NCBI GenBank assembly: GCA_965203325.1
Contig: OZ241875.1
Location: forward strand, 2,242,702 to 2,306,701
Source: a bacterium
GTDB lineage: Bacteria > UBA8248
Reading direction: 5' to 3'
Length of the DNA: 64,000 bases
Shown here: positions 4,688 through 46,414 of the stretch, one piece after another
Layout: every line of letters starts with the position of its first letter
How positions within the stretch are numbered: the first letter of the stretch is position 1
Program-made: the position numbers and the translations under genes
Notes under the pieces: generated by a model
Databases searched by the model: none
What the model was told of the DNA's origin: nothing
The model's input: the letters and a program-made list of their open reading frames with translations, nothing else

Positions 4688-4774
4688 CGGAGGGATGGCC
4701 GAGCGGCCGAAGGCGGTGGTCTTGAAAACCACTGAGCGAAAGCTCCGGGGGTTCGAATCCCTCTCCCTCCGCCA
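4688..4774 (+). tRNA. tRNA-Ser (anticodon UGA)
   Basis: Acceptor stem GGAGGGA/TCCCTCC, anticodon loop CTTGAAA, long variable arm, GGTTCGAATCC T-loop, encoded CCA. Confidence 0.9.
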
Positions 4775-5192: not shown

Positions 5193-6419
5193 ATGATTAG
5201 ACCCCCAGATATAAAGGGACTGGCGCGGCGTTGGCGTCGTGCGCCGCGACGATGGGGCCACCCTCTACACTCTTTGTGCTCGTACTTCGCCATGTTTCCG
5301 CCACAGGTTCCGTACGTATTCATTCGATGGCTTACTAAGCCTGGTGATGTCGTCTATGATCCGTTTGCCGGACGCGGCACTACACCTATGGAGGCATGCC
5401 GGATGGGACGCGTTGGCATGGGTTCGGATGCTAATCCCCTGGCGCACCTCCTTACCGCAGGCAAAGTAGACGCTCCAACCACTGATGAGGCACATACTCG
5501 CTTGAGAGTCTTGCGTGAGAATTGTGTCCCGGAGTGCCCGAGTTCAGCCCCTGCTGACATCCAGATGCTCTACTCAGGCCGAGTCCTCGGGCAGCTCATA
5601 TGGTTGCGAAATGCACTTAAAGTTAGCCAGCGTGATGACCGATTCCTAATGGCACTTCTCTTAGGGGTGATGCATGCCAACTATAGGCCCGGTGGACCGG
5701 TACACGGCTTGTCGATCAGTATGCCGAACACATTTTCGATGTCGGCGGGATATGTCCGGCGATATATTGAGGAGCATAGGCTCGTACCACCCGATGTTGA
5801 CGTCTTCGATCTTCTCGATTGGAAGCTGGGCAGGATGAGCTTGCCTGAGGCTACGGCAACGCGAGGCACCGCTTGGCAGCAGGACGCACGCAACCCCATG
5901 GCCACGACAATTTGCGACCGGCCTGCGAAGCTCGTGTTCACATCTCCCCCTTACCTTAGCGTCATCAAGTATGGGAAATACAACTGGGTGCGACTCTGGA
6001 TGCTCAAGCAAGAACCGGAAGTGGTTGATCGAGCACTCGTCGCGACTGGGTCTCTGCCGAAATACCTGCAGTTCATCAGTGCCGTCTTGACGCAGATGGC
6101 CTCAGCGATTCGGGAGGATGGATACCTCTGTCTGATGATCGGCGACGTTTATGATCGTTGCAAGGGAAAAACTACGAACCTCGCTGCCCAGGTCTGGGAG
6201 GAAGCTGCGCAACCACTTGGTTGGCGCCTTCATGGCATTGTTACTGACCGACTTCCAACTAAACACAAAGTCAGTCGAATTTGGAAGCAAAGGCGTGGGG
6301 AAGCGACGAAGACGGACCGTGTACTTATATTATCCCGCCCTGGAAACAACCTTACTCAGCTGCCTCCTCTTAGCCCTATACGGTGGGAGCCAGCTTCCGA
6401 GTGGGCTGCAGGAGGATAG
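5193..6419 (+). CDS. DNA methyltransferase (N6-adenine/N4-cytosine, PF01555-like, motif I then IV order)
   Basis: Motif I/X context FPPQVPYVFIRWLTKPGDVVYDPFAGRGTT, and motif IV TSPPY further C-terminal. Confidence 0.85.
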   Translation: MIRPPDIKGLARRWRRAPRRWGHPLHSLCSYFAMFPPQVPYVFIRWLTKPGDVVYDPFAGRGTTPMEACRMGRVGMGSDANPLAHLLTAGKVDAPTTDEAHTRLRVLRENCVPECPSSAPADIQMLYSGRVLGQLIWLRNALKVSQRDDRFLMALLLGVMHANYRPGGPVHGLSISMPNTFSMSAGYVRRYIEEHRLVPPDVDVFDLLDWKLGRMSLPEATATRGTAWQQDARNPMATTICDRPAKLVFTSPPYLSVIKYGKYNWVRLWMLKQEPEVVDRALVATGSLPKYLQFISAVLTQMASAIREDGYLCLMIGDVYDRCKGKTTNLAAQVWEEAAQPLGWRLHGIVTDRLPTKHKVSRIWKQRRGEATKTDRVLILSRPGNNLTQLPPLSPIRWEPASEWAAGG

Positions 6420-6424
6420 AAGTA

Positions 6425-8383
6425 ATGTTGATCAACGAGAGACTTAGGAACTTGGCGACAATAAATGTCTTCGAGGATGTCGCGATTGAGAACTCGTTTA
6501 TCGGGCGACCATTCTACTTCGACTTTAACAAGATGAAGATCTTGTCGAACGACCACTGGAAGGAAATGGTGGGTGGGGTCCCGGCTGGGGCTTTTCTTGC
6601 TGCACTATTCGACAACGACACGGAACATCCAGAGGTCGTACTTCTTCGTGTCCTTGGGCCAACTGCGCTTCCAACTGATTCAGATGTCGTCGCTGCAATG
6701 GTGGATCACTACAAGGAGAGTGAAGGAACGGAGACGGACTCGGGAACGCTCGACAGCTATACTAGGTACGAGTTTCAGTTCTCAGGCCTAGAGTGTAGAG
6801 TGCTCGGTTCTTTTTATCAGAATGCACAAGGCAATACATGCTTCGGGGCTGATGTCGACAACTTCTACGGCCCCAACAACTACTCGGTCTACAAACCTTC
6901 CGGTAACGTTTTGGAGTACCTAGTGAATTTCCGTGAAGGCGACGGACTTCCCGGAGGACCTGGAGATCAAAGAATCGGTGAAATCCGCTACTCGTCAAGC
7001 CAGCGGCACACTCAGGATGCTTCTGTCCCTCTGTATGTGTCGGCCCTTGACTACTTAGGAAAACGCACAGCGCTCTTCGGAATGAAGCGTACAGGAAAAT
7101 CCAATACCGTCAAAAAGATCATTCAGGCAACTGTAAACTTGGGATCAGCGGGAATTGAGCATGAGGGTGAGCAGCTTGTCCCAATAGGGCAGATCATTTT
7201 CGATGTAGACGGTGAATATGCCAATGCGAATCTACAAGACGAAGGAACCGCGGTTTTTGAGCTTTTTGAGAACGAGACCATCCGATACTCCACCCACCCA
7301 AAAGAAGGCTTCCGTGTGCTCAAGGTGAACTTCTACAACGAGGTTGATCTGGGATTCGAGCTCATATCCAGTGATCCGAGAGTCGCGGACGACACAACGA
7401 GATTTGTGTCGAACTTTAGAAGCGTAGAACTGACGCAGCCTGACCAAGAGAACGTGTCTGAGATAAGGCGCTGGGAGCGACGTAGGGCTGTGTATTTTTG
7501 CATTCTGCACGAGGCAGGTTTCGCTGCGCCTCAGACTTTCCAGGTTCGCTTTTCGGCTAATGCTGAAGTTCGAAACGCTGTGGCTCTTAACTTCGAGGCA
7601 GACCGTAGGGGATATATGCGCCTCACTCTGCAGCAAGCCTCCGCATGGTGGCAACGTTTTTGGGAAGTGTATGCCGCCGACCCCAACGGTTGCTTTGCAC
7701 AATACAAACGCGACCACGATAGCCGACCTTGGGCTGAAGATGATCTTGAGGCCCTGCTCACAATGCTCACAAGACGGCGCACGTCCGGAGGGGCAGTCGA
7801 CTGCAGCGGTTTTCGTGTCTTGCGGGAGATCGCCGAAAAACACACATCGACACTACAGACTTCATTTGAGGATGACATCCTTCAGCAGTTACGTGAGGGG
7901 AGAATCGTAATTGTTGATCTCTCGCTCGGAGATGACATCACGAAGCGTTTCTTCTCCGAGAGAGTATGCCGTCGTATATTCGATGATGCAATGCTCCGCT
8001 TCACTCAGATGCAGACACAAAACTTCATTCAGATGTATTTTGAAGAAGCGCACAATTTATTTCCGAGGAAAGAATCTGCCGACCTAACCCAGATCTACAA
8101 TCGTATTGCAAAGGAGGGTGCGAAGCTCCGACTTGGACTCGTCTACGCCACCCAGGAAGTTAGCTCGATATCAGCGAACGTTCTCAAAAACACACAGAAC
8201 TGGTTCGTGTCGCACCTTAACAATCAAGATGAGCTTCGCGAGATAGCTAAATATTACGACTTCGAGGACTTCGTGGATAGCCTTCGACGAACGACCGACA
8301 AAGGGTTCATTCGAATGAAGACGTACTCCAACGCGTTCATTGTACCCGTGCAGATCGACCGGTTCACAGTGGCGGAGACATAA
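6425..8383 (+). CDS. HerA/DUF87-like P-loop ATPase (FtsK-HerA superfamily) with a ~200-aa N-terminal domain of unknown function
   Basis: Walker A GMKRTGKSNT, Walker B-like IVIVDLS plus EEAHNLFP (DEAH-like), and the HerA C-terminal motif KLRLGLVYATQEVSS...NTQNWFVSHLNNQDE. The start is probably ATG 6425 after GGAGGA; the track starts at 6383. Confidence 0.65.
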   Translation: MLINERLRNLATINVFEDVAIENSFIGRPFYFDFNKMKILSNDHWKEMVGGVPAGAFLAALFDNDTEHPEVVLLRVLGPTALPTDSDVVAAMVDHYKESEGTETDSGTLDSYTRYEFQFSGLECRVLGSFYQNAQGNTCFGADVDNFYGPNNYSVYKPSGNVLEYLVNFREGDGLPGGPGDQRIGEIRYSSSQRHTQDASVPLYVSALDYLGKRTALFGMKRTGKSNTVKKIIQATVNLGSAGIEHEGEQLVPIGQIIFDVDGEYANANLQDEGTAVFELFENETIRYSTHPKEGFRVLKVNFYNEVDLGFELISSDPRVADDTTRFVSNFRSVELTQPDQENVSEIRRWERRRAVYFCILHEAGFAAPQTFQVRFSANAEVRNAVALNFEADRRGYMRLTLQQASAWWQRFWEVYAADPNGCFAQYKRDHDSRPWAEDDLEALLTMLTRRRTSGGAVDCSGFRVLREIAEKHTSTLQTSFEDDILQQLREGRIVIVDLSLGDDITKRFFSERVCRRIFDDAMLRFTQMQTQNFIQMYFEEAHNLFPRKESADLTQIYNRIAKEGAKLRLGLVYATQEVSSISANVLKNTQNWFVSHLNNQDELREIAKYYDFEDFVDSLRRTTDKGFIRMKTYSNAFIVPVQIDRFTVAET

Positions 8384-8386
8384 CTT

Positions 8387-9733
8387 ATGGGATATGGCTC
8401 CAAGGGACGAAAGCCTATAGAGCGCGCCAGTAAGATTGCGCACGCAGAGATTATCAAAAACCCGGAAGTCCAAGCTTATATGAGAGAATGTATAGTCCCA
8501 TCTGCGCCTGGCGTGGAGTCACTCGACTCTATGATTGAGACGCTCGGCGAAGTGGATACCTCAGAAGTGACTGCGGTCGTCGCTGTGGATGGTGGCTACA
8601 CAGAGACCTATGTGCGTGAGGAGTATCCTTCGGCCTCCATTACGTTTTTCACATTCGGTCCCCTATTGTTTGAACTTGCTGACCTCCGCGCATTGGACAA
8701 AAAGAGGTTCATTGCGCCAGAAGAGCTCGCTCGCCTTAAGAGAATCGAGCGCTACACCCTTGTGTTGCCGACGAAGGGTATTCGGCGTCAGGACCAACAG
8801 TCCCTGTCAGCCACGATCCGGCGCACTGTATACGAGTTCTTCACAAAGCCACGTGGGGAAGACGATAATCTCATGGTCAGCCTCAAGTGGTTTCTATTCA
8901 GGCGTTGGAAGCGGAATCCAGACAATGGTCTAGTTCAGATTGTTGAGCACTGTCCATCAGATTGCGGTCACGGAGCAACGAGTTTCCTTTTTGAGGAGCA
9001 GACTGAGAAAAGCTGTCCTAAGTGCGGGCGACCAGTTTATCTTACGGATGTCTTCCGGCTGCAAGAGCGGATCGATGAGGAGCTAGGTGCGGGAGGAATC
9101 AGTGCCTATGTAATGACAATGCTGGAACAACTAGTTCTCATACACCTGTTCTACAACATAATAGAGCGCCTCAAGCCCAGCCTGATGCGGAGCATCTTAT
9201 TCATCAAGGATGGACCATTGGCCTTTTTCGGTCTGGTTGCTCCGCTGTGTCGGCCCATGCGGGAGCTCGTGCAGCACCTACTCAGCGAGCCCGGAGGACA
9301 AATGGGGCCAACGCTCAGGCTCGCCGGATTAGAGAAGAGTGGAGCATTTGTCGAACACGCTGCAGCGATCCAGGACCTTATGGAGCCTAACTCCTACATG
9401 ATTGTTAATGATGGCTATATCCGGCGACATATCGTGCCAGGAGAGGTCGGCGTGGTGTATGGACAAAACACATACTACGGCCAAAAAGTGTTGTTCCGGG
9501 CACCGGGTGGGGAGATGCACGTCGTGACGATCCCGGCCCAAAGCTATATGGCAGATCCGAATCCCTCGGAAATGCCCCACCTCGAAGATGTGCTGACACT
9601 CATCGCCGAGCTTCGATGCAGTATGCACGATAATTCGTTGATTCCTGTTGCATTGGCAAACAAACTCGTCTCGCTTTCTGACTTCCCGAGCCAGCGCATC
9701 CTAACGACTTTCGCGAGAGAGAACATCCAGTGA
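8387..9733 (+). CDS. NurA-like / RNase H-fold putative nuclease with internal zinc ribbon (partner of the upstream ATPase)
   Basis: AVDGG near the N-terminus (NurA motif I is xDGS), a CPSDC...CPKCG zinc ribbon, and acidic motifs IKDGPL and IVNDGY. It is translationally coupled to the upstream gene (4-nt gap). Confidence 0.4.
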   Translation: MGYGSKGRKPIERASKIAHAEIIKNPEVQAYMRECIVPSAPGVESLDSMIETLGEVDTSEVTAVVAVDGGYTETYVREEYPSASITFFTFGPLLFELADLRALDKKRFIAPEELARLKRIERYTLVLPTKGIRRQDQQSLSATIRRTVYEFFTKPRGEDDNLMVSLKWFLFRRWKRNPDNGLVQIVEHCPSDCGHGATSFLFEEQTEKSCPKCGRPVYLTDVFRLQERIDEELGAGGISAYVMTMLEQLVLIHLFYNIIERLKPSLMRSILFIKDGPLAFFGLVAPLCRPMRELVQHLLSEPGGQMGPTLRLAGLEKSGAFVEHAAAIQDLMEPNSYMIVNDGYIRRHIVPGEVGVVYGQNTYYGQKVLFRAPGGEMHVVTIPAQSYMADPNPSEMPHLEDVLTLIAELRCSMHDNSLIPVALANKLVSLSDFPSQRILTTFARENIQ

Positions 9734-19162: not shown

Positions 19163-19417
19163 TGATTCGTTTTTTGTGGGCTTTTTCAACAACCCCCTTC
19201 AACAAGGGATTCTCCCGTAGTAGGACAGGTCGCGACCTGTCCCTCTACACAACCGCAATCGCTCCCTCATCGTCCAGAATCGGTTCTAAAGAGAAATGCT
19301 GCGGGCATCGCCAATTCACGCGGAATGGGGTTACAATGGATTTTTAGTCATCTGGTCGCAAATTCCCCCGGCGCAAGTCTTCTGTTCGTCGCCGAACAAG
19401 GAAAGGCCGCCGTACGC

Positions 19418-20281
19418 ATGTCGTATTCCGGGATTGCCGAACTCGCGGAGGGAAAAGTCTACGCCCTCCACAACACGTTCCCGCTGGACGGGCGGATCAG
19501 CGCATACCCCATCAGCGCGCGCGGGCACAGCGTCTCGAACTGCTATCTCCTGAAAGAAGACGCGGGCGCGCTCCTGCTCGATACGGGCTACGCCGCCCAC
19601 GAAGAAGAAATCCTGGCGCAGCTGGAATCCCTCATCGCGCCGGATACGCCGCTGCACCTGCTCCCGCTGCGCATCAACGAATTCATGTCGGTGGGAAACG
19701 CCATGGCGGTCGCCAAGCGCTTCAACGTGGTGGAGTGCCTCGCCCCCGTGCCGGAAATCAACGAGTGGCTCGAGTTCGAAGCGATCGAGCCGAACGAAGC
19801 GAACAACGGCAACCCCATCCTGCCCACCACGATACTGAAGCCGCTCCACCCGCTTGAAATCGGCGATAGATACATCGAGGTGATGAACGCGCCGATCCGC
19901 CTCATCAGCACCCGCTGGATTTACGATGCGGCCACGCGTATCCTGTTCACCTCGGACATGTTCAGCCACCTCTGGGCGGAGGGGGCGGAAGGCCCCTGGC
20001 TGCTGGATGAAGACAACGCCACGACGACTTCCTTCGTCCGCTCGTTCCTGCTGAACACGCGCTACTGGTGGCTCGAGGGCGCGAGGACGGACTCCATCCG
20101 AAAAGGCATCACGGAAGTATTCGAGCGCTACGACATCGAGACCATCGCTCCGGGATACGGCGCGGTTCTGCGCGGGCGCCGTCTGGTCGAGCAACAATTC
20201 GCCGTGCTGGATGAAGTTCTGGCGGGTCTCGACCGGGGCGTCGTCAAACCCCAATACGTCGCGCTGGGTCTGGAAAGATAG
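19418..20281 (+). CDS. MBL-fold ODP-like (oxygen-binding di-iron protein / flavodiiron N-domain-like) paralog 1, metal ligands degenerate
   Basis: Colinear with the downstream paralog, but the His motifs are replaced (LLLDTGYAAHEEE). Start ATG 19418 after AGGAAAGG. Confidence 0.55.
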   Translation: MSYSGIAELAEGKVYALHNTFPLDGRISAYPISARGHSVSNCYLLKEDAGALLLDTGYAAHEEEILAQLESLIAPDTPLHLLPLRINEFMSVGNAMAVAKRFNVVECLAPVPEINEWLEFEAIEPNEANNGNPILPTTILKPLHPLEIGDRYIEVMNAPIRLISTRWIYDAATRILFTSDMFSHLWAEGAEGPWLLDEDNATTTSFVRSFLLNTRYWWLEGARTDSIRKGITEVFERYDIETIAPGYGAVLRGRRLVEQQFAVLDEVLAGLDRGVVKPQYVALGLER

Positions 20282-20289
20282 GAGCACAC

Positions 20290-21051
20290 ATGAGTCATCC
20301 CCTGCCCCGAGAAATATCGCCCGGCGTCTTCTGGCTCGGCGACTGCCTGGTCCAGCACTCCCAGGGCAAGATATATCACTCCTACAACGCGGCCTTCCTC
20401 GTCATCGGATCAGTTGCCTCCATGCTGATAGAGACGGGACATCCCAAGGATTTCCCGATCATCGAACGCCAGATGAGGGACATCCTGACCCGAGGCGGAG
20501 GCCCGCTCAAACACCTGTTCCTGACCCATCAGGAGACGCCCCACTCGGGCGGTCTGGGCCGCGTGCTCGATAGATACCCCGACCTCACCATCCACGGGGA
20601 CATGTGCGACTACCACCTGGCGTTTCCCCAGCACGAGGGCCGCTTCCGGGAGATGCGCGTGGGAGACGCCATCGACCTGGGCGATACGAAGTTCATGGCC
20701 GTGGAGCCGGTGATCCGGGACTTGCGGAGTTCTCTCTGGGGATTCGAGACCAAAGGGCGCGTGCTGTTTCCGGGAGACGGCTTCGCCTACAGCCACTACC
20801 ACACGGACGGCCACTGCGGGATGTTCGCCGAAGAGGCGACCTCGCTCGATCTCGTCGACGTGCTGGGCGTATTCGCCGAACGCGCCCTGTACTGGACCAC
20901 CTTCACTGACATGAACGTCTACGCCGACAAGCTCGAAGAGTTGATGGATGAACTGGACGTCGAAGTCGTCGCGCCGACGCACGGCCTGCCCATACGCGAC
21001 ATCGCGCAAACAATGCCGAAAGTGAGAGAAGGCCTCGTACGGGGCGACTGA
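20290..21051 (+). CDS. MBL-fold ODP-like di-iron protein paralog 2
   Basis: THQETPH (HxExxH-type), HTDGHCG and GDGFAYSHYH motifs. Confidence 0.6.
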   Translation: MSHPLPREISPGVFWLGDCLVQHSQGKIYHSYNAAFLVIGSVASMLIETGHPKDFPIIERQMRDILTRGGGPLKHLFLTHQETPHSGGLGRVLDRYPDLTIHGDMCDYHLAFPQHEGRFREMRVGDAIDLGDTKFMAVEPVIRDLRSSLWGFETKGRVLFPGDGFAYSHYHTDGHCGMFAEEATSLDLVDVLGVFAERALYWTTFTDMNVYADKLEELMDELDVEVVAPTHGLPIRDIAQTMPKVREGLVRGD

Positions 21052-21131
21052 GGCGCGAACCCCACGGAGAAGAATTCCAACCGGTGAATGAAGAATCGCA
21101 GGGACAGGGCCTCCTCGGGGTATAAAGGCAA

Positions 21132-21271
21132 CCCCCCCTACCCCCCCTTGTCAGGGGTCAAACGCGAGTGATGAACGAGCGTTTGCATAAGCCATTGACG
21201 AGAAACACATCGTCTTGCAAAACCTCCCTCTTCGGTCGGTTTTGACCCCTGACAAGGGGGGGTAGGGGGGG
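21132..21271. repeat. Family-B MITE-like element: terminal inverted repeats CCCCCCCTACCCCCCCTTGTCAGGGG / CCCCTGACAAGGGGGGGTAGGGGGGG around an 88-bp core with an internal hairpin
   Basis: Direct reading; related arms occur at 4565-4592, 26953-27117 and 37459-37482. Confidence 0.8.
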
Positions 21272-21320
21272 TTGGTTCTCAAGGCGAGAGCCTGCGCCGC
21301 CGCCCGGTTTCGGGTTTGAC

Positions 21321-21937: not shown

Positions 21938-22498
21938 ATGACAGGTCCTGTAGATGGACACAGCACCTCCACCGTGCCGGGCGAGCGCGTCATCGACAAG
22001 CCCGAACTCCCCAAAGGGGGGCTGTATACCGACAACACCGTCCACACCGAGATGCACGAAGGCTCCCTGCAGCTCAAGCGCGGAACGGCGGGCAAGTTCG
22101 AGATTTTCTGCGACGAGGGCGCGAACATCGGCGGCACGGCGCAATACCCCACGCCGATGGCCTATCTCGCCATGGCGACGGGGTTCTGACTGCTCACCCA
22201 GGTGTCGCGGTACGCGCACATGATGAAAATGGAGATCAAGGGAGCGAGCGTCTCCGTCCGGTTCCGAAAGCTGCTGGGCGGCTCGGTGCTCAAAGGCACC
22301 GTGTTCAACAAGTGGGAGGCCGTGGACACACATCTCAAAGTCGAATCGGACGAACCCGCCGAAAAGCTCGCCCACCTCATCAAGAACGCCAAGAACGGCT
22401 GTTTCGCCGAGGCCCTGATCACCGAGCCGGTGCCGCTCCACTCCACCGTGGAGGTGAACGGCGAACCGTTCGAGATAGAGGGAATCACGGCGGATTAA
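21938..22498 (+). CDS. OsmC/Ohr-family peroxiredoxin-like protein with an in-frame TGA (22187-22189) at the peroxidatic Cys position. It is a candidate selenoprotein, or otherwise a pseudogene.
   Basis: Both track ORFs (21938-22189 and 22202-22498) are in the same frame. GGTAQYPTPMAYLAMATGF-TGA-LLT aligns with OsmC GG..P.P.ELLLAALAGC. The second conserved Cys (NGCF) is present. A GAGGAG SD precedes the ATG. Confidence 0.55.
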
Positions 22499-22520
22499 CC
22501 CCCATACCTGGAGTTTTTTC

Positions 22521-22973
22521 ATGGAATACTTCCACGCATCTGAGGATATCGCCTTCGGCTCGCAGCCCGAGCCCGCGGATCTGGAGTCCCTCGCCGCAAG
22601 AGGGGTCAAGACCATCATCAACACGCGCTTTCCTGAAGAAGACCAGGGCGACCTCCCGCCCGAGCGCGCAAAGGCCCAAGCCGAGGCGCTGGGAATGCGC
22701 TACGTGAACGTCCCCGTCTCGCCCGCCGAGTTCAGCCCCGCCTCGCTGGCCGAGGTGAGCCGCGCTCTCTCAGAAGCCAAGGCCCACGGAACGACCTTCG
22801 TCCACTGAAAGGCCACGGGGCGGGCCGGGATTTGCTCGCTGAACCATCTGGCGGATGAGAACGACTGGAGCGCGCGGGAGATGGAGGGGGCCGCCGACGC
22901 CACCGGCTTCGACTGGCGCGACGCGCCGTTAGCACCCAAATACCGCGAGTTCTTCGCAAGGAGGCCCGGGTAG
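22521..22973 (+). CDS. DUF442/TIGR01244-like (rhodanese/phosphatase-like) protein with an in-frame TGA (22806-22808) replacing the CX4R catalytic Cys. It is a candidate selenoprotein.
   Basis: ...AHGTTFVH-TGA-KATGRAG... matches the family motif VLaHC(R/K)SGtRs. The frame continues to TAG at 22971. Confidence 0.5.
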
Positions 22974-23404
22974 GCGCAAAAGGGCCGTCGTATCCCCATC
23001 CATCAAGGGCTTAATCTTTCCTGCGCCCTGAACGCCATTCGGCGGGGATGCGCGCCGCGCTTCAGAGGTTGTTGAAAAAGCCCCTCGATATGGGAAAACC
23101 ACCGTCATTCCGGCGAAAGCCGGAATCCAGAGCCAACGAGGAGAGCAACACCGCCGAACGGCTGGCAAAACCGACAAAGCAAAAAAACCAAAAACAAATT
23201 CACTGGATTCCGGCTTAAAAACATGCCGGAATGACGGTCGGGTCGGGCGGACACACAGGTCCGCCCCTACACCCCATTGCGTTTTTGCGTAGGGGCGGAC
23301 CTGTGTGTCCGCCCGATCTCGAAACGGTTTTTTTCACCAGACCCTTGTCAGGGGGGAGTCAACAGCCGCTTCAGTAGGCCGTCTTTCCCGACCCCCCGGT
23401 CCGC

Positions 23405-24194: not shown

Positions 24195-25385
24195 CTAGGT
24201 GATTACCCCGAGTTTGCGGCCCACCTCGGCGAATGCGCCGATGGCGCGGTCGAGGTCTCCCGTATCGTGGGCCGCCGACATCTGCGTGCGGATCCGGTCC
24301 TGCCCGCGCGGGACGACGGGAAACGAGAACGCGGTGACCAGTACGCCCTCCTCGCGAAGCCCGGCGGCGAAGTTCTGCGCCAGTTTCGGGTCTCGCAGCA
24401 TCAGGGGGATGATGGGGTGCTCGCCCGGCAGCAGTTCGAACCCCAGGGCGGTCATTTCGGCGCGGAAGCGCCTCGTATTGCGCCAGAGCCGATCCCGCAG
24501 CTCCGCCGAGCCGGCGAGAAGGTCCAGCGCCGCCAGGCCGGTCTGGGCGATGACGGGCGCCGGCGTGTTGGAGAAGATGTAGGGGCGCGCGCTCTGGCGC
24601 AGCCACTCCACGATGACGCGCCGGGCCGAGACGTAACCCCCCGCAGCACCTCCCAGCGCCTTGCCGAGCGTCCCCGTCAGGATATCGACCCGCCCTGCGA
24701 CGCCGAAGCGCTCCGGCGTCCCCCGCCCGCTTTTGCCGACGAAGCCGACGGCATGGCTGTCGTCCACCATCACGAGGGCGTCGTGTCTTTCCGCCAGGTC
24801 GCAGATGGCCGGCAGATCGGCCATATAGCCGTCCATCGAAAAGACCCCGTCCGTGGCGATCAGGCGGTAGCGCGCACCGGCCGCTTCTTTCAGTCTGGCC
24901 TCCAGGTCCTTCATGTCGTTGTTGGCGTAACGGAAGCGCTTCGCGCGGCAAAGGCGCACGCCGTCGATGATAGAGGCGTGGTTCAGCGCGTCGGATATGA
25001 TCGCGTCTTCCTCGCCCAGAAGGCTCTCGAACAGCCCCGCGTTGGCGTCGAAACAACTGGGGAAGAGGATCGTGCCCTCGGTTCCCAGAAACGCGCTCAG
25101 GCGCTCCTCCAACTGCTTGTGGGGAACCTGGGTGCCGCAGATGAACCGGACCGACGACATGCCGAAACCGTAGCGGGACAACGCGGCCCTGGCCGCCTCG
25201 ACGAGGCGTGGGTGGTTGGAGAGGCCCAGGTAGTTGTTGGCGCACAGATTGATGCAGGCCGCACCCGTCTCGAGGGTGACCTCGCCCTGCTGCGGCGAGG
25301 AGATGACCTGCTCCTGTTTGAACAGGCCGTCGGCCTTGAGCGTTTCGATCCGGCCGGCTAAATCGGCGAGGAATTCCTGGGTCAT
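24195..25385 (-). CDS. kbl: Glycine C-acetyltransferase (2-amino-3-ketobutyrate CoA ligase)
   Basis: Near colinear identity in motifs to E. coli Kbl ([27 protein letters not shown]). Confidence 0.93.
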
Positions 25386-25725
25386 TGGTCGGCCCTCTAG
25401 GTGCGAACACCGGCCGGGGCGGCGCGGGAGTCGGCGAGATACGGCCCATACCGGGATTCACTCCGATGATCTTCCGATTATGCCGCATCACGGCGAAGTC
25501 CACCAGACGCCGCGGGACGGCCCCCGGGGGGAGAGTCGCCGGAAAGCGTTTCAGGCGCGGGTCGGCGCGGGGAAATTTCTTGACATCGATCCGGCGATTC
25601 GTAGGATGAAACAGGCGAATTCCATGCGGCGGCGCGAGCGCCCGGCTGCCGCGCAGCGCCTTATTCATCACCTCCGCGCACGTATCCACTCACGGCCGCG
25701 TCACCGGAGAAAAGGATATACGGGC

Positions 25726-26865
25726 ATGATTGAGCTGCTCGGCATCGGTCACCTCTTCGAGCTTTCCCGGGCGGAAGCGGTTGCGGGGTTTTTCACCCCG
25801 CTCGTGGTCTTCGCCGCCTTTTTCGTGGCGCAACTCGCCTTGCCGGGCAGGTGGGTTCCCGGCTACGTCATCGACTCCGAGACGGGCGAGCCCCGCAAAT
25901 ACCGGCTGAACGGCCTCCTGGTTTTCGTGGTCGCGCAGATCGTGTGGGCTTTCGAGCTCACCGGGATGCCGCGCGAGTGGTTCTACCGCTCCACGGTCTA
26001 CGCCGTAGCCGGCGGAACGGTCTTCACCACCATCTTCGCCGTCATCGCGGTGTACAGCCGGCCGCCGGGGGAGGAAAAGAATCCGCTCCTGGCGCTGTGG
26101 GACGGGCGGGCGCAGGAGATATCGTTCTTCAAGAGCCGCTTCGACGTGAAGATGTATTTCTACGTCGTCGGCGGGACGATGCTCTCGCTGAACGCCCTCT
26201 CGGGCGCCGCGTACCACTGGGAGCACTTCGGCGCAGACTTCAACCCGGGCGTTTTCCTGTATGCGGCGTTCTTCACGTTCTACGTACTGGACTACTTCAT
26301 CTTCGAGCGCGTCCAGCTCTATACCTACGATCTGATCCACGAGAACGTCGGCTTCAAGCTGTTCTGGGGCGGCCTCGTGGTCTACGGGTGGATGTTCATC
26401 CTCCCGCTGTGGGGCATGGCCGCCTACCCCGACCCCCGATTCTCGCCGGGGTGGAAGAAGGTATGGCTCATCGGAACGGCCGCGCTGTTCCTGTTCGGGT
26501 GGGGCATCGGGCGCGGCGCCAACCTGCAGAAATACACGTTCAAAAGGTGGCCCGAGCGCAAGTTTCTGGGCCTCATCGAGCCCGTCTACATCGAGGCGGG
26601 TGAGCGCAAGATACTTTGCAGCGGCCTGTGGGGCGTCGCCCGTCACTTCAACTACATGGGCGAGGGGTTCCTGGCCCTCTCCATCGCCCTGGTGTTCGGC
26701 TACTTCACGAATCCCTGGGCCTGGACCTATTTCGTCTTCATCGTCTCGTTCTTCACCTGCCGTCAGCGTTACGACGACGCCTACTGCGCCGAGAAATACG
26801 GCGCGGAGAAGTGGGCGGAGTATCAGGCGCGGGTGAAGTACCGGATATTCCCCGGCGTTTATTGA
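25726..26865 (+). CDS. ERG4/ERG24-like sterol reductase family membrane protein
   Basis: Multi-TM; C-terminal signature GLWGVARHFNYMGEGF ... YCAEKYGAEKWAEYQARVKYRIFPGVY. The true start is ATG 25726 (GGAG SD). The track ORF starts at 25234, antisense to kbl. Confidence 0.75.
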   Translation: MIELLGIGHLFELSRAEAVAGFFTPLVVFAAFFVAQLALPGRWVPGYVIDSETGEPRKYRLNGLLVFVVAQIVWAFELTGMPREWFYRSTVYAVAGGTVFTTIFAVIAVYSRPPGEEKNPLLALWDGRAQEISFFKSRFDVKMYFYVVGGTMLSLNALSGAAYHWEHFGADFNPGVFLYAAFFTFYVLDYFIFERVQLYTYDLIHENVGFKLFWGGLVVYGWMFILPLWGMAAYPDPRFSPGWKKVWLIGTAALFLFGWGIGRGANLQKYTFKRWPERKFLGLIEPVYIEAGERKILCSGLWGVARHFNYMGEGFLALSIALVFGYFTNPWAWTYFVFIVSFFTCRQRYDDAYCAEKYGAEKWAEYQARVKYRIFPGVY

Positions 26866-27270: not shown

Positions 27271-28143
27271 TCACTCTCCGATCTTCCAGACGCCCTTCTC
27301 CCGGAAAGCGGGGATGGTCTGGCGGCGGGCGGCGTTGGTCGTGGCGGGGGCCGAGAGGCCTCTCTTCCTGATGTAGTCGGAGAGCCGCACGACCGATTCG
27401 CCCCTGAGGTAGGTCACCCGTTTGTGCAGCGATTCCAGAAGCGCGAGCGAGAAGATGTTCTCCATCGTCCGGGCCGTCCGGCGGTCGCGATAGTCGCCAA
27501 ACGCCTGGTAGTAGCGCTCCCTCTCCGAGTATCGGATGATGAGGCGCGGCAGGCCGAGTTGTAGAAGCTGGAAGTTGATGATCACACGACCGATCCGTCC
27601 GTTGCCGTCGCAGAAGGGATGAATCGTCTCGAAATCCAGATGGAACCGGGCGATCTTGTCGAGGCAGTAGGAATCCAGATCGCTCGAATATGTGATGAGG
27701 ATGTTCTCCATCATGCGCTCCACGTGCTCGGGCGCGGGCGCGATATGCGTACCCACGCGCACGTACTCTCCCTGTCCCCGAAACCGGCCCGCGATGGCGT
27801 CGTCGATGCCGCCGATGAGCATCTGGTGCAAGAGCAGTATCAACTCCTCATCCAGTTCGCTATCTTCCGCCCGCGCGCGCTTGTATTCGGTGACGCGGGC
27901 CAGATTCCTGGCTTCAAAAACCTCCCGCACCGACACCTCGCGCGCGAGGGATTGCTCCAGCAGGATTCTTTCGGTTTCATCGAGTGTGAGGGTGGAGTTT
28001 TCAATCGCGTTCGAGTTGTAGACGCTCTCGGGGATTTCGACCTCGTCGATCATTGCCAGAAGCGATTCCCTGCCCCGGCGCAAGGCGTCGTATTCCCGCT
28101 TGAGAGCCCCGATGCGATCTTTTATCGGCCCCGGAGTAGTCAT
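27271..28143 (-). CDS. Fic family protein (class II, intramolecular inhibitory helix)
   Basis: FIC motif HPFCDGNGRIGR, and N-terminal inhibitory motif SNAIEN ((S/T)xxxE(G/N)). Confidence 0.85.
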   Translation of the reverse strand: MTTPGPIKDRIGALKREYDALRRGRESLLAMIDEVEIPESVYNSNAIENSTLTLDETERILLEQSLAREVSVREVFEARNLARVTEYKRARAEDSELDEELILLLHQMLIGGIDDAIAGRFRGQGEYVRVGTHIAPAPEHVERMMENILITYSSDLDSYCLDKIARFHLDFETIHPFCDGNGRIGRVIINFQLLQLGLPRLIIRYSERERYYQAFGDYRDRRTARTMENIFSLALLESLHKRVTYLRGESVVRLSDYIRKRGLSAPATTNAARRQTIPAFREKGVWKIGE

Positions 28144-28260: not shown

Positions 28261-28373
28261 CCCGCATCGGGCCGCCCGGATAGTTTTCCTTGACACTCAT
28301 CCTGCCCCTCGCTAGGTTGGTTGGAGACTCCGACACGTCCTCCATAGCACGTCGCTGGTCCGGGAGAGGATTC

Positions 28374-30056
28374 ATGGCCATCGCATCGGATGTGGAAATC
28401 GCGCAAGCCGCGAAGCTCAAACCCATCACGGAAATCGCCGAAGAACTGGGCCTGGGGCCGGAGGAGATAGAACTCTACGGCGCGCACAAGGCCAAGGTGA
28501 GCCTCGATGCGCTCGAACGCCGCAAGGACGCGCCGGACGGAAAACTCATCCTCGTCACCGCCATGACACCCACCCCGCTGGGCGAGGGCAAGACGCTCAC
28601 CACGGTGGGGCTCGGCCAGGCGCTGGCGCGGCTCGGCAAGAAAAGCGTCATCTGCGTGCGCGAACCCTCCCTCGGCCCCGTGTTCGGCATCAAGGGGGGC
28701 GCGGCCGGCGGCGGCATGTCCCAGGTGCTGCCGATGGAGGACATCAATCTCCACTTCACGGGCGACATCCACGCCGTCACCTCCGCGCACAACCTGCTCT
28801 CCACCCTGCTGGACGCGCACATATTCCACGGAAACGATCTCAGCCTGGACGTGAACCGCGTCACCTGGAAGCGCGTGCTGGACATGAACGACCGCGCGCT
28901 GCGCCACGTGCTCGTGGGTCTCGGCGGCAGGACGCACGGCGTGCCCAGGGAGGAGGGCTTCATGATCACGGCGGCGTCCGAAGTCATGGCCGTGCTGTGC
29001 CTCGCGCGCGACCCGCAGGACATGAAAGAGCGCATCGCGCGGGTCGTCGTCGGCTACACGCGGAAGGGCGCGCCCATCACCGCGGGCGATCTGAACGCCG
29101 CGGGCGCGATGGCCCTGCTCTTAAAAGACGCCATCAAGCCCAATCTGGTGCAGACGCTGGAGGGCTCGCCCGCCTTCGTCCACGGGGGGCCGTTCGGGAA
29201 CATCGCCCACGGCACGAACTCGCTCATCGCGGACAAGCTGGCGTTAAAGCTGGGCGACGTGATGGTGGTGGAGGCGGGATTCGGCTCCGACCTGGGTGCG
29301 GAGAAATTCTTCGACATCACCGCGCGCACGGGAGGCCTGAGCGTGGACGCGGTGGTGCTCGTCGCCACCGTCCGCGCGCTCAAGCTCCACGGGGGCGTTC
29401 CCTTCGACAAGGACGCGCTGGCGGAGGAGAACGTGGACGCCCTCGCGGAAGGCTTCGCGAATCTAAAGGTCCACATCGAGAACATCCAGAGCTTCGGCGC
29501 GCCCGTGGTGGTGGCCGTGAACCGCTTCGCTTCGGATACCGACGCCGAGATAGCGCGCGTGAAAGAGCTTTGCGCCGAGGCGGGAGCGCCGTGCCACGCG
29601 CATGAGCTTCACGCCAAAGGTGGCGAGGGGGGCGTAGAACTCGCCGGGACGGCTTTCGATCTCGCCGCCGCGAACGATTCACCCTACACCCCGCTTTATC
29701 CCCTCGATATGCCGCTCAAGGAAAAAATCGAGGCCATCGCGACGCGCATCTACCGCGCGGGTGCGGTGCGCTTCGAGCCGGGAGCGGCGCGCAGCCTGCG
29801 CTCCCTGACGAGGCTGGGCTACGGCGAGCTTCCGGTCTGCATCGCGAAGACGCAGGCTTCCCTCTCCGACGACCCCAAGCAGCCGGGCGCGCCCGAGGGC
29901 TTCATCCTGAACGTGCGCGAGGCCTACGTGTCCGCAGGGGCGGGGTTCGTCGTCGCCATCGCCGGGAACATCATGCAGATGCCCGGCCTCGCCAAAGTCC
30001 CCGCTTCGGCGGGAATGGACATCACGGCTGAGGGGAAGATTACGGGGCTGTTTTAG
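28374..30056 (+). CDS. fhs: Formate--tetrahydrofolate ligase
   Basis: Full-length FTHFS homology (PTPLGEGKTTT...). The start is probably ATG 28374 (MAIASDVEIAQ). Confidence 0.95.
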   Translation: MAIASDVEIAQAAKLKPITEIAEELGLGPEEIELYGAHKAKVSLDALERRKDAPDGKLILVTAMTPTPLGEGKTLTTVGLGQALARLGKKSVICVREPSLGPVFGIKGGAAGGGMSQVLPMEDINLHFTGDIHAVTSAHNLLSTLLDAHIFHGNDLSLDVNRVTWKRVLDMNDRALRHVLVGLGGRTHGVPREEGFMITAASEVMAVLCLARDPQDMKERIARVVVGYTRKGAPITAGDLNAAGAMALLLKDAIKPNLVQTLEGSPAFVHGGPFGNIAHGTNSLIADKLALKLGDVMVVEAGFGSDLGAEKFFDITARTGGLSVDAVVLVATVRALKLHGGVPFDKDALAEENVDALAEGFANLKVHIENIQSFGAPVVVAVNRFASDTDAEIARVKELCAEAGAPCHAHELHAKGGEGGVELAGTAFDLAAANDSPYTPLYPLDMPLKEKIEAIATRIYRAGAVRFEPGAARSLRSLTRLGYGELPVCIAKTQASLSDDPKQPGAPEGFILNVREAYVSAGAGFVVAIAGNIMQMPGLAKVPASAGMDITAEGKITGLF

Positions 30057-44631: not shown

Positions 44632-45540
44632 ATGGCGGTATACTCTCCGGGAGCATATAAAGGAAAACCGACCCGAGCCACCAGCTACCTGGCAGGCTTG
44701 CTCGAAGAAAACGACAAGCCGGTTCTGACCCAGCTCGATTTTTTGCAAATCATTCGCCAAATGTACCGAGAATCACCCGACAAGAAACTATATCTGCGCC
44801 ACGATACTCCTGGCCGGGCAGACTGCTTTCGTCTCAGGTCAAACTTGAATAGGCAAGGCGTAATCGGGCCCGATCGGGATTATGGCGCGCGCATCATCAG
44901 GGTGTTGGCCGTTTCGGACCTTCCGGCTGAAGGCATCGTCTGCCTCGTCGATCCGACATGCTACATTTCCCACCTCTCCGCTATGCAGCGGTGGGGACTC
45001 ACCGACCGAAGACCGGATGCCCTGATGCTGACGCGCCCGGATCGCAAGACCGCCATGATCCACTTAAAAGCACACACGTCGAAAATTCTGGGAACAGGAG
45101 AAACCAATCTCTTCCCGCTGAAGATCGTCGGTCATCCCGCTCGTGTCCGAAGGCGGGCCGTCCACGTTCATGAAAGCAAAACCGCAGGGGCGTTTTTGAA
45201 GAACCGGGGGGATGGAGTGTCTCTCTCGACTATCGGACAAACTTTCCTCGACATGCTTCAAAGGCCCGATCTTTGCGGGGGGATGTCTCATGTTCTCGAT
45301 ATTTGGGAAGAACACGCTAAAACCTATTTCAGCGAAATTGTCACATCGGTCGGGACCGCCAAAATCGGGATCGTCAAAAGCCGGGCCGGCTACATCCTTG
45401 AAGAACGGTTAGGGTTGCATCACCGCGAAATAGAGCGCTGGCAATCATGCGCTCAGCGCGGCGGTAGTCGCAAGCTCGATCCGGCCAAGGCCTTTGCGCC
45501 GACCTATTCAGAAAAATGGATGATTTCCCTCAATGCCTGA
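44632..45540 (+). CDS. AbiEi-family antitoxin / transcriptional regulator (type IV TA)
   Basis: CYISHLSAMQRWGLTD resembles the AbiEi/COG5340 YhSxxSAL..hGL core; it overlaps the downstream gene by 8 nt. Confidence 0.65.
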   Translation: MAVYSPGAYKGKPTRATSYLAGLLEENDKPVLTQLDFLQIIRQMYRESPDKKLYLRHDTPGRADCFRLRSNLNRQGVIGPDRDYGARIIRVLAVSDLPAEGIVCLVDPTCYISHLSAMQRWGLTDRRPDALMLTRPDRKTAMIHLKAHTSKILGTGETNLFPLKIVGHPARVRRRAVHVHESKTAGAFLKNRGDGVSLSTIGQTFLDMLQRPDLCGGMSHVLDIWEEHAKTYFSEIVTSVGTAKIGIVKSRAGYILEERLGLHHREIERWQSCAQRGGSRKLDPAKAFAPTYSEKWMISLNA

Positions 45541-46414
45541 ACCCAATCTTAAAATTGACGTTGCCAGGTGGGTCGAAAATGCGAAGGCCGACCCGGTCGC
45601 CTACCAGCAACGCCAGACGGTGGAAATAGTCCTCAACGCCATAGCGATGACGGTCCCCCTTAACGCAAAGATGTTCCTGAAAGGCGGCATTCTCATGGGT
45701 CTCGCCTATGACAGCCCAAGGCAAACGACCGACATCGATATGTCGACAAACCTTATGGCCCGAAGCGAAACCGCAGACAGGGTCAAAACGCTACTGGATT
45801 CAGCTTTCCCTCGCGCGGCCGCAGCGCTGGGTTATGCCGACCTCGTCCTTAAAACTCACTCGGCAAAAAAGATGCCTAAGAAAACAATCTTTGAAACAGC
45901 GGATTTCCCCGCCCTAAAACTCAAAATCGCTTATGCGCGCCGAAGGACAAAACAAGAAATGAGGCTTTTGGAGGGCAAAGTTTCTGAGGTGATTGACCTA
46001 GATATTTCATTCAACGAAACCTTGCAACATATCCAAGTATTAGAACTAACCGGTGGACAGGAGCTGCAAGCTTATGGCCTCGTCGATCTCATCGCCGAAA
46101 AATATCGCGCTATGCTTCAACAAGTGCCACGAAGGCGTAACCGGCGACAAGATGTCTACGATCTCGATTTGCTGCTTAGAATGCATCGGATCGATGACAT
46201 TCTCCGCACGCAAATCCTGGATGTTTTCATTGCGAAATGCCGGTCGCGCCGTATAGAGCCGACACGTTCGTCCCTAGACGACCCCGAGGTCAAAACAAGG
46301 TCTCGCGCAGAGTGGCAAACGATGAAATTGGAGTTAGGCGAAGTGCCGGATTTTGAGCGCTGTTTCGCCCGCATCTCGGAATTTTATCGGAACCTGCCTT
46401 GGAAACCAGAATGA
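45533..46414 (+). CDS. AbiEii/AbiGii-family nucleotidyltransferase toxin (DUF1814)
   Basis: FLKGGILMGLAYDSPRQTTDIDMS matches lKGGtAL...R.S.DIDf. Confidence 0.7.
   Translation: MPEPNLKIDVARWVENAKADPVAYQQRQTVEIVLNAIAMTVPLNAKMFLKGGILMGLAYDSPRQTTDIDMSTNLMARSETADRVKTLLDSAFPRAAAALGYADLVLKTHSAKKMPKKTIFETADFPALKLKIAYARRRTKQEMRLLEGKVSEVIDLDISFNETLQHIQVLELTGGQELQAYGLVDLIAEKYRAMLQQVPRRRNRRQDVYDLDLLLRMHRIDDILRTQILDVFIAKCRSRRIEPTRSSLDDPEVKTRSRAEWQTMKLELGEVPDFERCFARISEFYRNLPWKPE

Follow-up and report, generated by a model that had tools for sequence, protein, structure and literature searches.

Does a TGA codon in the middle of a well-conserved bacterial gene end translation, or does it encode the catalytic residue of the enzyme? 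The question is raised by a gene of the DUF442 family at positions 22521-22973 of a 64,000-nucleotide stretch (64 kb, hereafter the window) from a bacterium of lineage UBA8248 (contig OZ241875.1 of assembly GCA_965203325.1). Judging from the sequence of the gene and its relatives, we infer that it encodes a selenoprotein, with a probability of roughly 0.87. The product would be the selenocysteine (Sec) form of an enzyme with a C-X4-R active-site loop and the fold of protein tyrosine phosphatases and dual-specificity phosphatases (PTP/DSP).

The in-frame TGA, its conservation and a candidate SECIS hairpin

The open reading frame (ORF) starts at ATG 22521 and runs through 95 sense codons, with the last residues AKAHGTTFVH, to a TGA at 22806-22808. 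Past the TGA the frame opens with KATGRAGICSLNHLADEN and continues for 54 sense codons, or 55 with the stop, to TAG 22971-22973, and the residues in between read KATGRAGICSLNHLADENDWSAREMEGAADATGFDWRDAPLAPKYREFFARRPG. In gap-free alignments with distant homologues and the structures 2F46 and 3GXG, the TGA coincides with the near-invariant Cys of the H-C-X4-R loop. The initial annotation had described the gene as a second candidate selenoprotein, with an in-frame TGA in place of the catalytic Cys of a CX4R loop and a frame running 55 codons to a TAG. The position of the TGA and the extent of the frame are both correct, and the candidate gains support from the conserved TGA at the Cys position, coding selection downstream and a hairpin. 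A six-frame composition scan of the window detected only two ORF-TGA-ORF junctions with coding-type, non-shadow sequence on both sides, one in the DUF442 gene and one in the OsmC-like gene directly upstream. Genome-wide reassignment of UGA is ruled out because TGA terminates 23 of the 52 called genes in the window and is the commonest genuine stop. A separate ORF downstream of the TGA is likewise ruled out, as the first ATG lies at 22881, well past the conserved KATGRAGICSL.

Public gene calls stop at the TGA. In a protein search, about 50 clusters (at 90% identity) were recovered with 65-96% identity to the window protein, all exactly 95 residues long and carrying names such as "sulfur transferase domain-containing protein" or "uncharacterized protein (TIGR01244 family)". 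The sole full-length match was P0029, a homologue of 162 residues with 53% identity. The genomes themselves extend further. In a species-representative collection, all other genomes carrying the gene (19/19) have TGA at codon 96, followed by KATGRAGICSL and a stop near codon 150. These genomes are metagenome-assembled genomes (MAGs) labelled Nitrospinota, Nitrospinaceae or "bacterium", several of them from sponges. Their translations wholly diverge only beyond the terminal stop near codon 150. Past the TGA, entropy at codon positions 1, 2 and 3 is 0.23, 0.19 and 0.63, respectively, which is the signature of a translated region. The ratio of nonsynonymous to synonymous substitution rates (dN/dS; Nei-Gojobori, all pairs summed) is 0.188 for codons 97-147 versus 0.160 for codons 1-95.

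More distant orthologues on metagenome contigs also carry the TGA, at identities of about 71% (L023), 65% (L021), 49% (L026) and 45% (L027-29). They share the motif (K/M)xxGRAG(I/V)CSL past the TGA and a complete C-terminal domain, and they keep the TGA and the same hairpin while flanking codons vary. In total, at least 24 lineages carry the TGA. The Cys form P0029 reads FVH-C-KAIGRAGVCS where the window reads FVH-TGA-KATGRAGICS, and its Cys codon is TGC, as also seen on contig L024. A further residue, Cys105, is shared by P0029 and every Sec form. The initial annotation had held coincidental decay of two neighbouring genes to be unlikely, and conservation of the TGA in at least 24 lineages with purifying selection downstream bears this out. 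Orthologues with an intact Cys, proposed there as a sign of a pseudogene, give no indication of decay either: the only Cys form found is the 53%-identical relative, which is devoid of the hairpin.

Two variants of gene structure were observed among the relatives. P0067, a relative of the L027 lineage, is a 94-residue gene call in which the N-terminal 55 residues lead straight into the C-terminal tail (...AAEENDMGGDEVLL...). This variant has the Sec/P-loop region deleted in frame, and may represent either a genuine deletion allele or an artefact of assembly. On L024 (196-1012), P0029 is directly followed by a second DUF442 paralogue, which is ended by the contig edge.

Shortly after the TGA, within the coding sequence, the transcript can form a candidate bacterial selenocysteine insertion sequence (bSECIS). 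The hairpin, GGCGGGC-CGGGAUUU-GCUCGCU, has 7 pairs and an 8-nt loop with G at loop bases 2-4. It follows the UGA by 17 nt and has a folding energy of -9.7 kcal/mol, with 8 of 200 dinucleotide shuffles folding equally well. Published bSECIS criteria are a loop of 3-9 nt, an upper stem of 4-16 bp, a G in the first two loop positions, a distance of 16-37 nt from the UGA and a minimum free energy of at most -7.5 kcal/mol (PMC13188914). The hairpin of the DUF442 gene falls within every one of these limits (loop 8 nt, stem 7 bp, spacing 17 nt, -9.7 kcal/mol). SECIS prediction had been named as a check in the initial annotation, and a SECIS-like hairpin is present at the expected distance and conserved at synonymous sites. 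Folds of 60-85 nt around the UGA have no significant Z-scores in this GC-rich sequence, and only the 22-nt core stands out.

The hairpin is also the consensus structure computed by RNAalifold from 16 sequences. Cells in the stem are paired in 99% of cases, versus 32-56% if the 3' partner is slid by 1-3 columns. The single variable stem position changes from G.U to A-U in 5 of the 16 sequences, and the pair is kept. Codons 100-107 are the 8-codon stretch with the lowest third-position entropy in the gene. Across the 24 lineages, 4 of 6 fourfold-degenerate sites in the hairpin are invariant versus 0 of 10 elsewhere (Fisher p = 0.008, Mann-Whitney p = 0.004). The hairpin is built from codons that are non-preferred in the genome, with GGG, CGG and ATT making up 20%, 20% and 15% of their families. 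Given the amino acids and the codon usage of the window, the probability of this codon string is 5e-5. In the equivalent segment of the Cys homologue P0029, TCC TTC replaces TCG CTG in the 3' arm, which creates a C-C mismatch, and the best fold reaches -5.1 kcal/mol.

Family, predicted fold and putative function

The 150-residue product, with Cys in place of Sec, matches Pfam PF04273 (BLH_phosphatase/DUF442) at 45.3 bits, with a cut-off of 26.1. We built a family alignment (A5) of 22 members, including 17 distant full-length Cys homologues with 26-34% identity, and all 22 match PF04273. In this alignment, H95, R101 and C96, where the window protein has its predicted Sec, each reach a conservation of at least 90%, E40 is invariant and the loop is gap-free, giving the motif H-(C/U)-X4-R. 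The top structures for the A5 profile are 2F46 (NMA1982; E = 2e-23) and 3GXG (E = 3e-16). The segment U96-K-A-T-G-R101 aligns without gaps to their loops, CRTGTR (starting at C95 of NMA1982) and CLANYR, respectively. TpbA and other C-X5-R phosphatases fit the same profile only with an insertion of one residue. The make-up of the profile matters for the ranking: an earlier profile (A1) that included C-X5-R phosphatases placed TpbA first, and the family-only A5 placed the DUF442 structures first. A search of the PDB with the single sequence gave marginal matches only (E ~1).

The fold was examined on the 53%-identical Cys homologue P0029 rather than on the window protein. Its AlphaFold model has a mean predicted local distance difference test (pLDDT) score of 83 and a predicted template modelling (pTM) score of 0.81. 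In the model, Cys96 ends a strand (91-95) and is followed by a short loop and a helix (99-114), which is the classical P-loop arrangement. Cys105 is placed in the helix following the P-loop. A Foldseek search of the PDB with the model recovered TpbA, 2F46, 3GXH, Tk-PTP, Cdc14 and PRL-1 at TM-scores of 0.7-0.8. The Pfam scan of the product gave no match to the rhodanese domain PF00581 at E <= 0.1. On the strength of the profile and the homologue model, the window protein is placed in the DUF442 branch of PTP/DSP-fold proteins, with Sec predicted at the nucleophile position, and not among the rhodanese homologues. The label "DUF442/rhodanese-like" in the initial annotation therefore holds in its first half (PF04273, 45.3 bits). 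Its second half does not hold as a statement of homology, given the missing PF00581 match and the PTP/DSP fold, and the likeness is confined to the short C-X4-R loop.

What the enzyme does is less clear than what it is. In Xylella Blh, the DUF442 domain acts as a sulfur transferase, both thiosulfate:cyanide and thiosulfate:glutathione (PMC5823870). We tentatively favour a related role for the window protein, as a sulfane-sulfur or reactive-sulfur transferase acting through an enzyme Se-S intermediate, and we give this reading close to even odds. Cys105 could act as the resolving residue for the Se-S bond. Its conservation is confounded, though, as its codon lies in the hairpin stem. The product departs from classical Cys-based PTPs in having C-X4-R instead of C-X5-R and in not conserving the general-acid Asp. 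At the counterpart of D71 in NMA1982, the window protein has E, its orthologues have D or N, and further members of the family carry S, T, K, Q or A. This variability across the wider family argues against classical phosphatase catalysis. Some observations speak against a sulfur-transferase role. NMA1982 is a low-turnover tyrosine phosphatase with C95-X4-R100, the general acid D71 and the E-loop residue E53 (PMC10716126). The product scores 45.6 against the NCBIfam sulfur transferase model TIGR01244, below the cut-off of 85.85. The neighbours of distant orthologues differ from those in the window, with a Transglut_core2 gene upstream in two lineages. For the Blh model NF040641, the score is 52.7 against a cut-off of 625, and the match covers the first 130 model positions.

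The main alternative is a selenoprotein with other chemistry, such as a Sec-dependent phosphatase, an arsenate- or selenate-type reductase, or a selenium-trafficking protein. Sec96 might then form a Se-P or a Se-As/Se-Se intermediate, possibly resolved by Cys105. Such chemistry would fit the closest structure by profile, NMA1982, which is a proven phosphatase with the same C-X4-R loop, as well as the invariant E-loop Glu (E40) that positions the Arg. The conservation of Cys105 in the Sec forms and the Cys form, and the sub-threshold TIGR01244 score, point the same way. However, the counterpart of Asp71 in NMA1982 is not conserved, the location of Cys105 in the hairpin stem confounds the argument from its conservation, and the surrounding context contains no arsenic or phosphate genes. 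We consider other chemistry unlikely, though a serious contender to sulfur transfer.

Proposed decoding of the UGA and the surrounding locus

A selenoprotein of the DUF442 family would be made by standard Sec recoding. The UGA at 22806-22808 would encode Sec as the P-loop nucleophile of a 150-residue protein. The hairpin at 22819-22840, 17 nt past the UGA, would recruit SelB with Sec-tRNA(Sec), and after Sec insertion translation would proceed to TAG 22971. The enzyme may then cycle via a Se-S intermediate as a sulfane-sulfur transferase or a reactive-sulfur-handling enzyme. It might act alongside the upstream OsmC-like seleno-peroxidase in defence against redox or sulfur stress.

Several results weigh against Sec decoding. 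The 64-kb window yielded no tRNA-Sec, selA, selB or selD (ARAGORN, Rfam, and NCBIfam on the largest ORFs), and ARAGORN found no tRNA-Sec in 23 fetched loci. Because the window is a small sample of a genome of roughly 4.4 Mb, the machinery may be encoded elsewhere. The hairpin stem has no double-sided compensatory changes. It is near-invariant, and shuffled alignments reach the observed value. Covariation is therefore uninformative, and the RNA-level support comes from synonymous-site suppression and codon usage. The hairpin also overlaps the P-loop and the start of the following helix (GRAGICSL), so its conservation is partly at the protein level. Indirect support for Sec decoding comes from the neighbouring NF041052 selenoprotein and from the literature. 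UBA8248 MAGs labelled Nitrospinota/Nitrospinae, including sponge bin107, are among the ten most selenoprotein-rich bacteria in BSepDB, with 48-54 selenoprotein genes (PMC13326102), and bins of sponge symbionts show an enrichment of SelA and SelB (PMC5649159).

Alternatively, translation could truly stop at the UGA, or the codon could be a leaky stop that is read by a near-cognate tRNA with no selenium involved. In that case, the product would be a 95-residue N-terminal fragment or a read-through form with Trp or Cys, and the hairpin might be a read-through or pausing signal. The window, with no Sec machinery observed, and the 95-residue calls by all public gene callers are what such a stop would predict. 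However, going by the homologue model, three helices and the entire P-loop would be missing from a 95-residue product. The 54 codons past the TGA are under selection equal to that on the upstream part, the TGA coincides exactly with the position of the catalytic Cys, the hairpin conforms to the SECIS model and the neighbouring gene is a member of a curated selenoprotein family. We regard a stop, leaky or not, as quite improbable. A pseudogene or a sequencing or assembly error, by which a Cys codon (TGC or TGT) was mutated or misread to TGA, would need a single base change from the TGC of the Cys homologue, but it is effectively refuted because the identical TGA recurs in 19 independent species genomes and many metagenome assemblies of different sources, the frame is conserved without frameshifts and downstream dN/dS is 0.188.

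Coordinates of the DUF442-family gene, the OsmC-like gene and their sequence elements in the window
Feature	Position	Strand	Description
DUF442-family gene, putative selenoprotein	22521-22973	+	150 aa (95 residues, Sec96 and 54 residues), then TAG
GGAG ribosome-binding site	22510-22513	+	7 nt before the ATG of the DUF442 gene; read from sequence
TGA, putative Sec96 codon	22806-22808	+	nucleophile position in the P-loop H-U-K-A-T-G-R (C-X4-R type)
Candidate SECIS hairpin, DUF442 gene	22819-22840	+	stem 22819-22825 with 22834-22840 (7 bp); loop 22826-22833
Cys105 codon (TGC)	22833-22835	+	nine residues past Sec96; inside the 3' arm of the hairpin
OsmC-like selenoprotein gene	21938-22498	+	186 aa; TGA 22187-22189 in the motif GF-U-LLT (UxxT)
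Candidate SECIS hairpin, OsmC-like gene	22202-22219	+	7 pairs, bulged U, GUA loop; 20 nt after the UGA

The OsmC-like gene matches the NCBIfam model NF041052, "OsmC-related (seleno)protein", at 168.2 bits with a cut-off of 95, and also Pfam OsmC. Its TGA and full frame are conserved in 19 species. Its hairpin has an energy of -8.7 kcal/mol (22199-22224), is invariant in sequence in 20/20 genomes and fits the bSECIS criteria (PMC13188914). The initial annotation had pointed to two adjacent genes that each carry a TGA at the catalytic site, and this pairing is reinforced by the match of the partner to a curated selenoprotein model and by its equally conserved TGA. The wording "peroxiredoxin-like plus sulfurtransferase-like" fits in part: OsmC is peroxiredoxin-like in function only, and sulfur transfer is a putative role of the second protein.

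The stop of the OsmC-like gene and the ATG of the DUF442 gene are separated by 22 nt. This spacing and the GGAG motif suggest an operon, and the two genes are probably co-transcribed. A scan for promoters and terminators returned nothing useful. In essentially all 19 related genomes, the gene order MBL-like (metallo-beta-lactamase), methylmalonyl-CoA epimerase (on the opposite strand), OsmC-like(U) and DUF442(U) is kept. Because the neighbours of distant orthologues differ, the pairing of the two selenoprotein genes is lineage-specific and limited to the closer clade. On L021, a DAO-type FAD (flavin adenine dinucleotide) oxidoreductase gene lies two genes upstream of the Sec form, beyond the Transglut_core2 gene. 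On L024, the C-terminus of a DAO-type FAD oxidoreductase precedes P0029.

Two adjoining MBL-fold genes at 19325-21051 have weak matches to Pfam Lactamase_B/ODP, and the second also weakly matches the diiron domain of flavorubredoxin nitric oxide reductase. In 18/19 related genomes, synteny with the selenoprotein pair extends to this second gene. These upstream genes resemble diiron ODP/flavorubredoxin domains rather than ETHE1, and an ETHE1-type split-Blh system is thus ruled out. Between the MBL-like and methylmalonyl-CoA epimerase genes, an intergenic inverted repeat at 21129-21274 has 59-nt arms that are 85% complementary, a 28-nt spacer and C7TAC7 / G7TAG7 runs. It could be an element akin to repetitive extragenic palindromes or miniature inverted-repeat transposable elements (REP/MITE-like), or a bidirectional terminator. 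The sequence downstream of the DUF442 gene includes a perfect inverted repeat of 28 nt (23243-23270 with 23289-23316) and two nested 14-nt inverted repeats (23101-23130 with 23203-23238). The terminator scan called no T-run terminator at these repeats (23101-23316).

Further away in the window, the genes at 25234-26865, 27271-28143 and 28290-30056 encode an ERG4/ERG24-type sterol-reductase-like membrane protein, which is unusual in bacteria, a Fic-domain protein and a formate-tetrahydrofolate ligase. Near tRNA-Ser (4689-4774), three large ORFs at 5193-9733 have a third-position GC content (GC3) of 0.56-0.59 versus about 0.8 elsewhere. Two of them weakly match the anti-phage-associated DUF1156 and HerA helicase models, and the ORF at 8387-9733 has no family match. 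This block is probably a defence island that was gained horizontally at a tRNA gene. Low GC3 recurs in a gene pair at 44632-46414.

Novelty and comparison with known systems

The Sec recoding mechanism is standard, and the novelty lies in the protein family. A May 2026 catalogue of 119 prokaryotic selenoprotein families includes the OsmC-like (UxxT) family and five rhodanese-like forms (PMC13188914). The same catalogue has no entry for PF04273, TIGR01244, DUF442, a phosphatase or a "sulfur transferase". No selenoprotein model in NCBIfam release 20 matches the DUF442 product. Full-text searches of openly readable literature found no paper pairing selenoproteins with DUF442, PF04273 or TIGR01244, a scope that leaves some room for an earlier description. 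COG3453 is absent from the top-ranked matches of a literature search from 2025 onward. The Global Ocean Sampling (GOS) selenoproteome paper covers rhodanese-fold sulfurtransferases only, with no mention of DUF442 or COG3453.

A second, more divergent DUF442 lineage was detected on a single contig, L031 (3001-3430; JGI 3300044679). Its gene, which comes after one for a response regulator, carries a TGA at the catalytic Cys (...KTLTH-U-AGGTRIAV...), and the frame goes on for about 51 codons. A 6-bp hairpin is spaced 20 nt from the UGA on its 3' side, and its GGUC loop is fdhF-like. With odds somewhat better than even, we suggest that these genes are the first recognised natural selenoproteins of the PTP/DSP fold. 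They would form an uncatalogued "U-X4-R" DUF442 family that is truncated in annotation and takes part in a two-selenoprotein operon with OsmC-like. The same odds cover its occurrence in at least two divergent lineages with different SECIS elements, namely the GRAGICSL/CGGGAUUU type of the window and the AGGTR/GGUC-loop type of L031.

If this is true, the PTP/DSP fold with its C-X4-R loop would be an added fold class among natural enzymes with Cys replaced by Sec, and the two-selenoprotein operon would handle reactive sulfur, peroxide or selenium. The window gene and P0029 would be a natural Sec/Cys pair, with which the benefit of selenium in a P-loop nucleophile could be probed, for example resistance to over-oxidation or faster Se-S turnover. 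The family is also relevant to the choice between phosphatase and sulfur-transferase activity for DUF442 proteins. The analysis further exposes a systematic annotation error, as public databases list 95-residue stubs by the dozen as "sulfur transferase domain-containing protein". With a family model derived from these sequences, annotation pipelines and selenoproteome surveys could capture DUF442 selenoproteins.

The nearest relatives for comparison are the N-terminal domain of Blh (Xylella, Agrobacterium), NMA1982 of Neisseria meningitidis (2F46) and a Shewanella protein (3GXG/3GXH). The window protein shares with these DUF442 proteins the PTP/DSP fold, the H-C-X4-R P-loop that is one residue shorter than C-X5-R, the E-loop Glu and a "Y-x-x-x-P-V" strand. 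Like NMA1982, it is a stand-alone protein of about 150 residues. Unlike these proteins, it has a predicted Sec nucleophile, an extra conserved Cys105 and a general-acid position that is not conserved. It also has no fused ETHE1/MBL dioxygenase domain and scores below the cut-offs of TIGR01244 and NF040641.

Rhodanese-like selenoproteins (forms 1-5; PF00581/NF041203/NF045694) resemble the DUF442 candidate in their sulfur-transferase-type loop, the replacement of the catalytic Cys by Sec and the bSECIS in the coding region. They also occur in the same kind of selenoprotein-rich marine bacteria. However, the rhodanese fold is unrelated to PTP/DSP, and the resemblance of the loops is convergent rather than homologous. 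Compared with the fdhF-type SECIS of Escherichia coli, the DUF442 hairpin likewise lies directly 3' of the UGA inside the ORF, with G residues in the loop at about positions 22-24, counted from the U of the UGA, and it fits the consensus model. The two elements differ in the loop, which has 8 nt (CGGGAUUU) in the DUF442 gene and GGUC in fdhF, and in the bulged U that is absent from the DUF442 stem. The OsmC-like selenoprotein (UxxT; NF041052) belongs to another family, already catalogued and known from the Sargasso Sea and GOS selenoproteomes. It shares with the DUF442 gene the same style of conserved TGA and hairpin, and probably the same operon.

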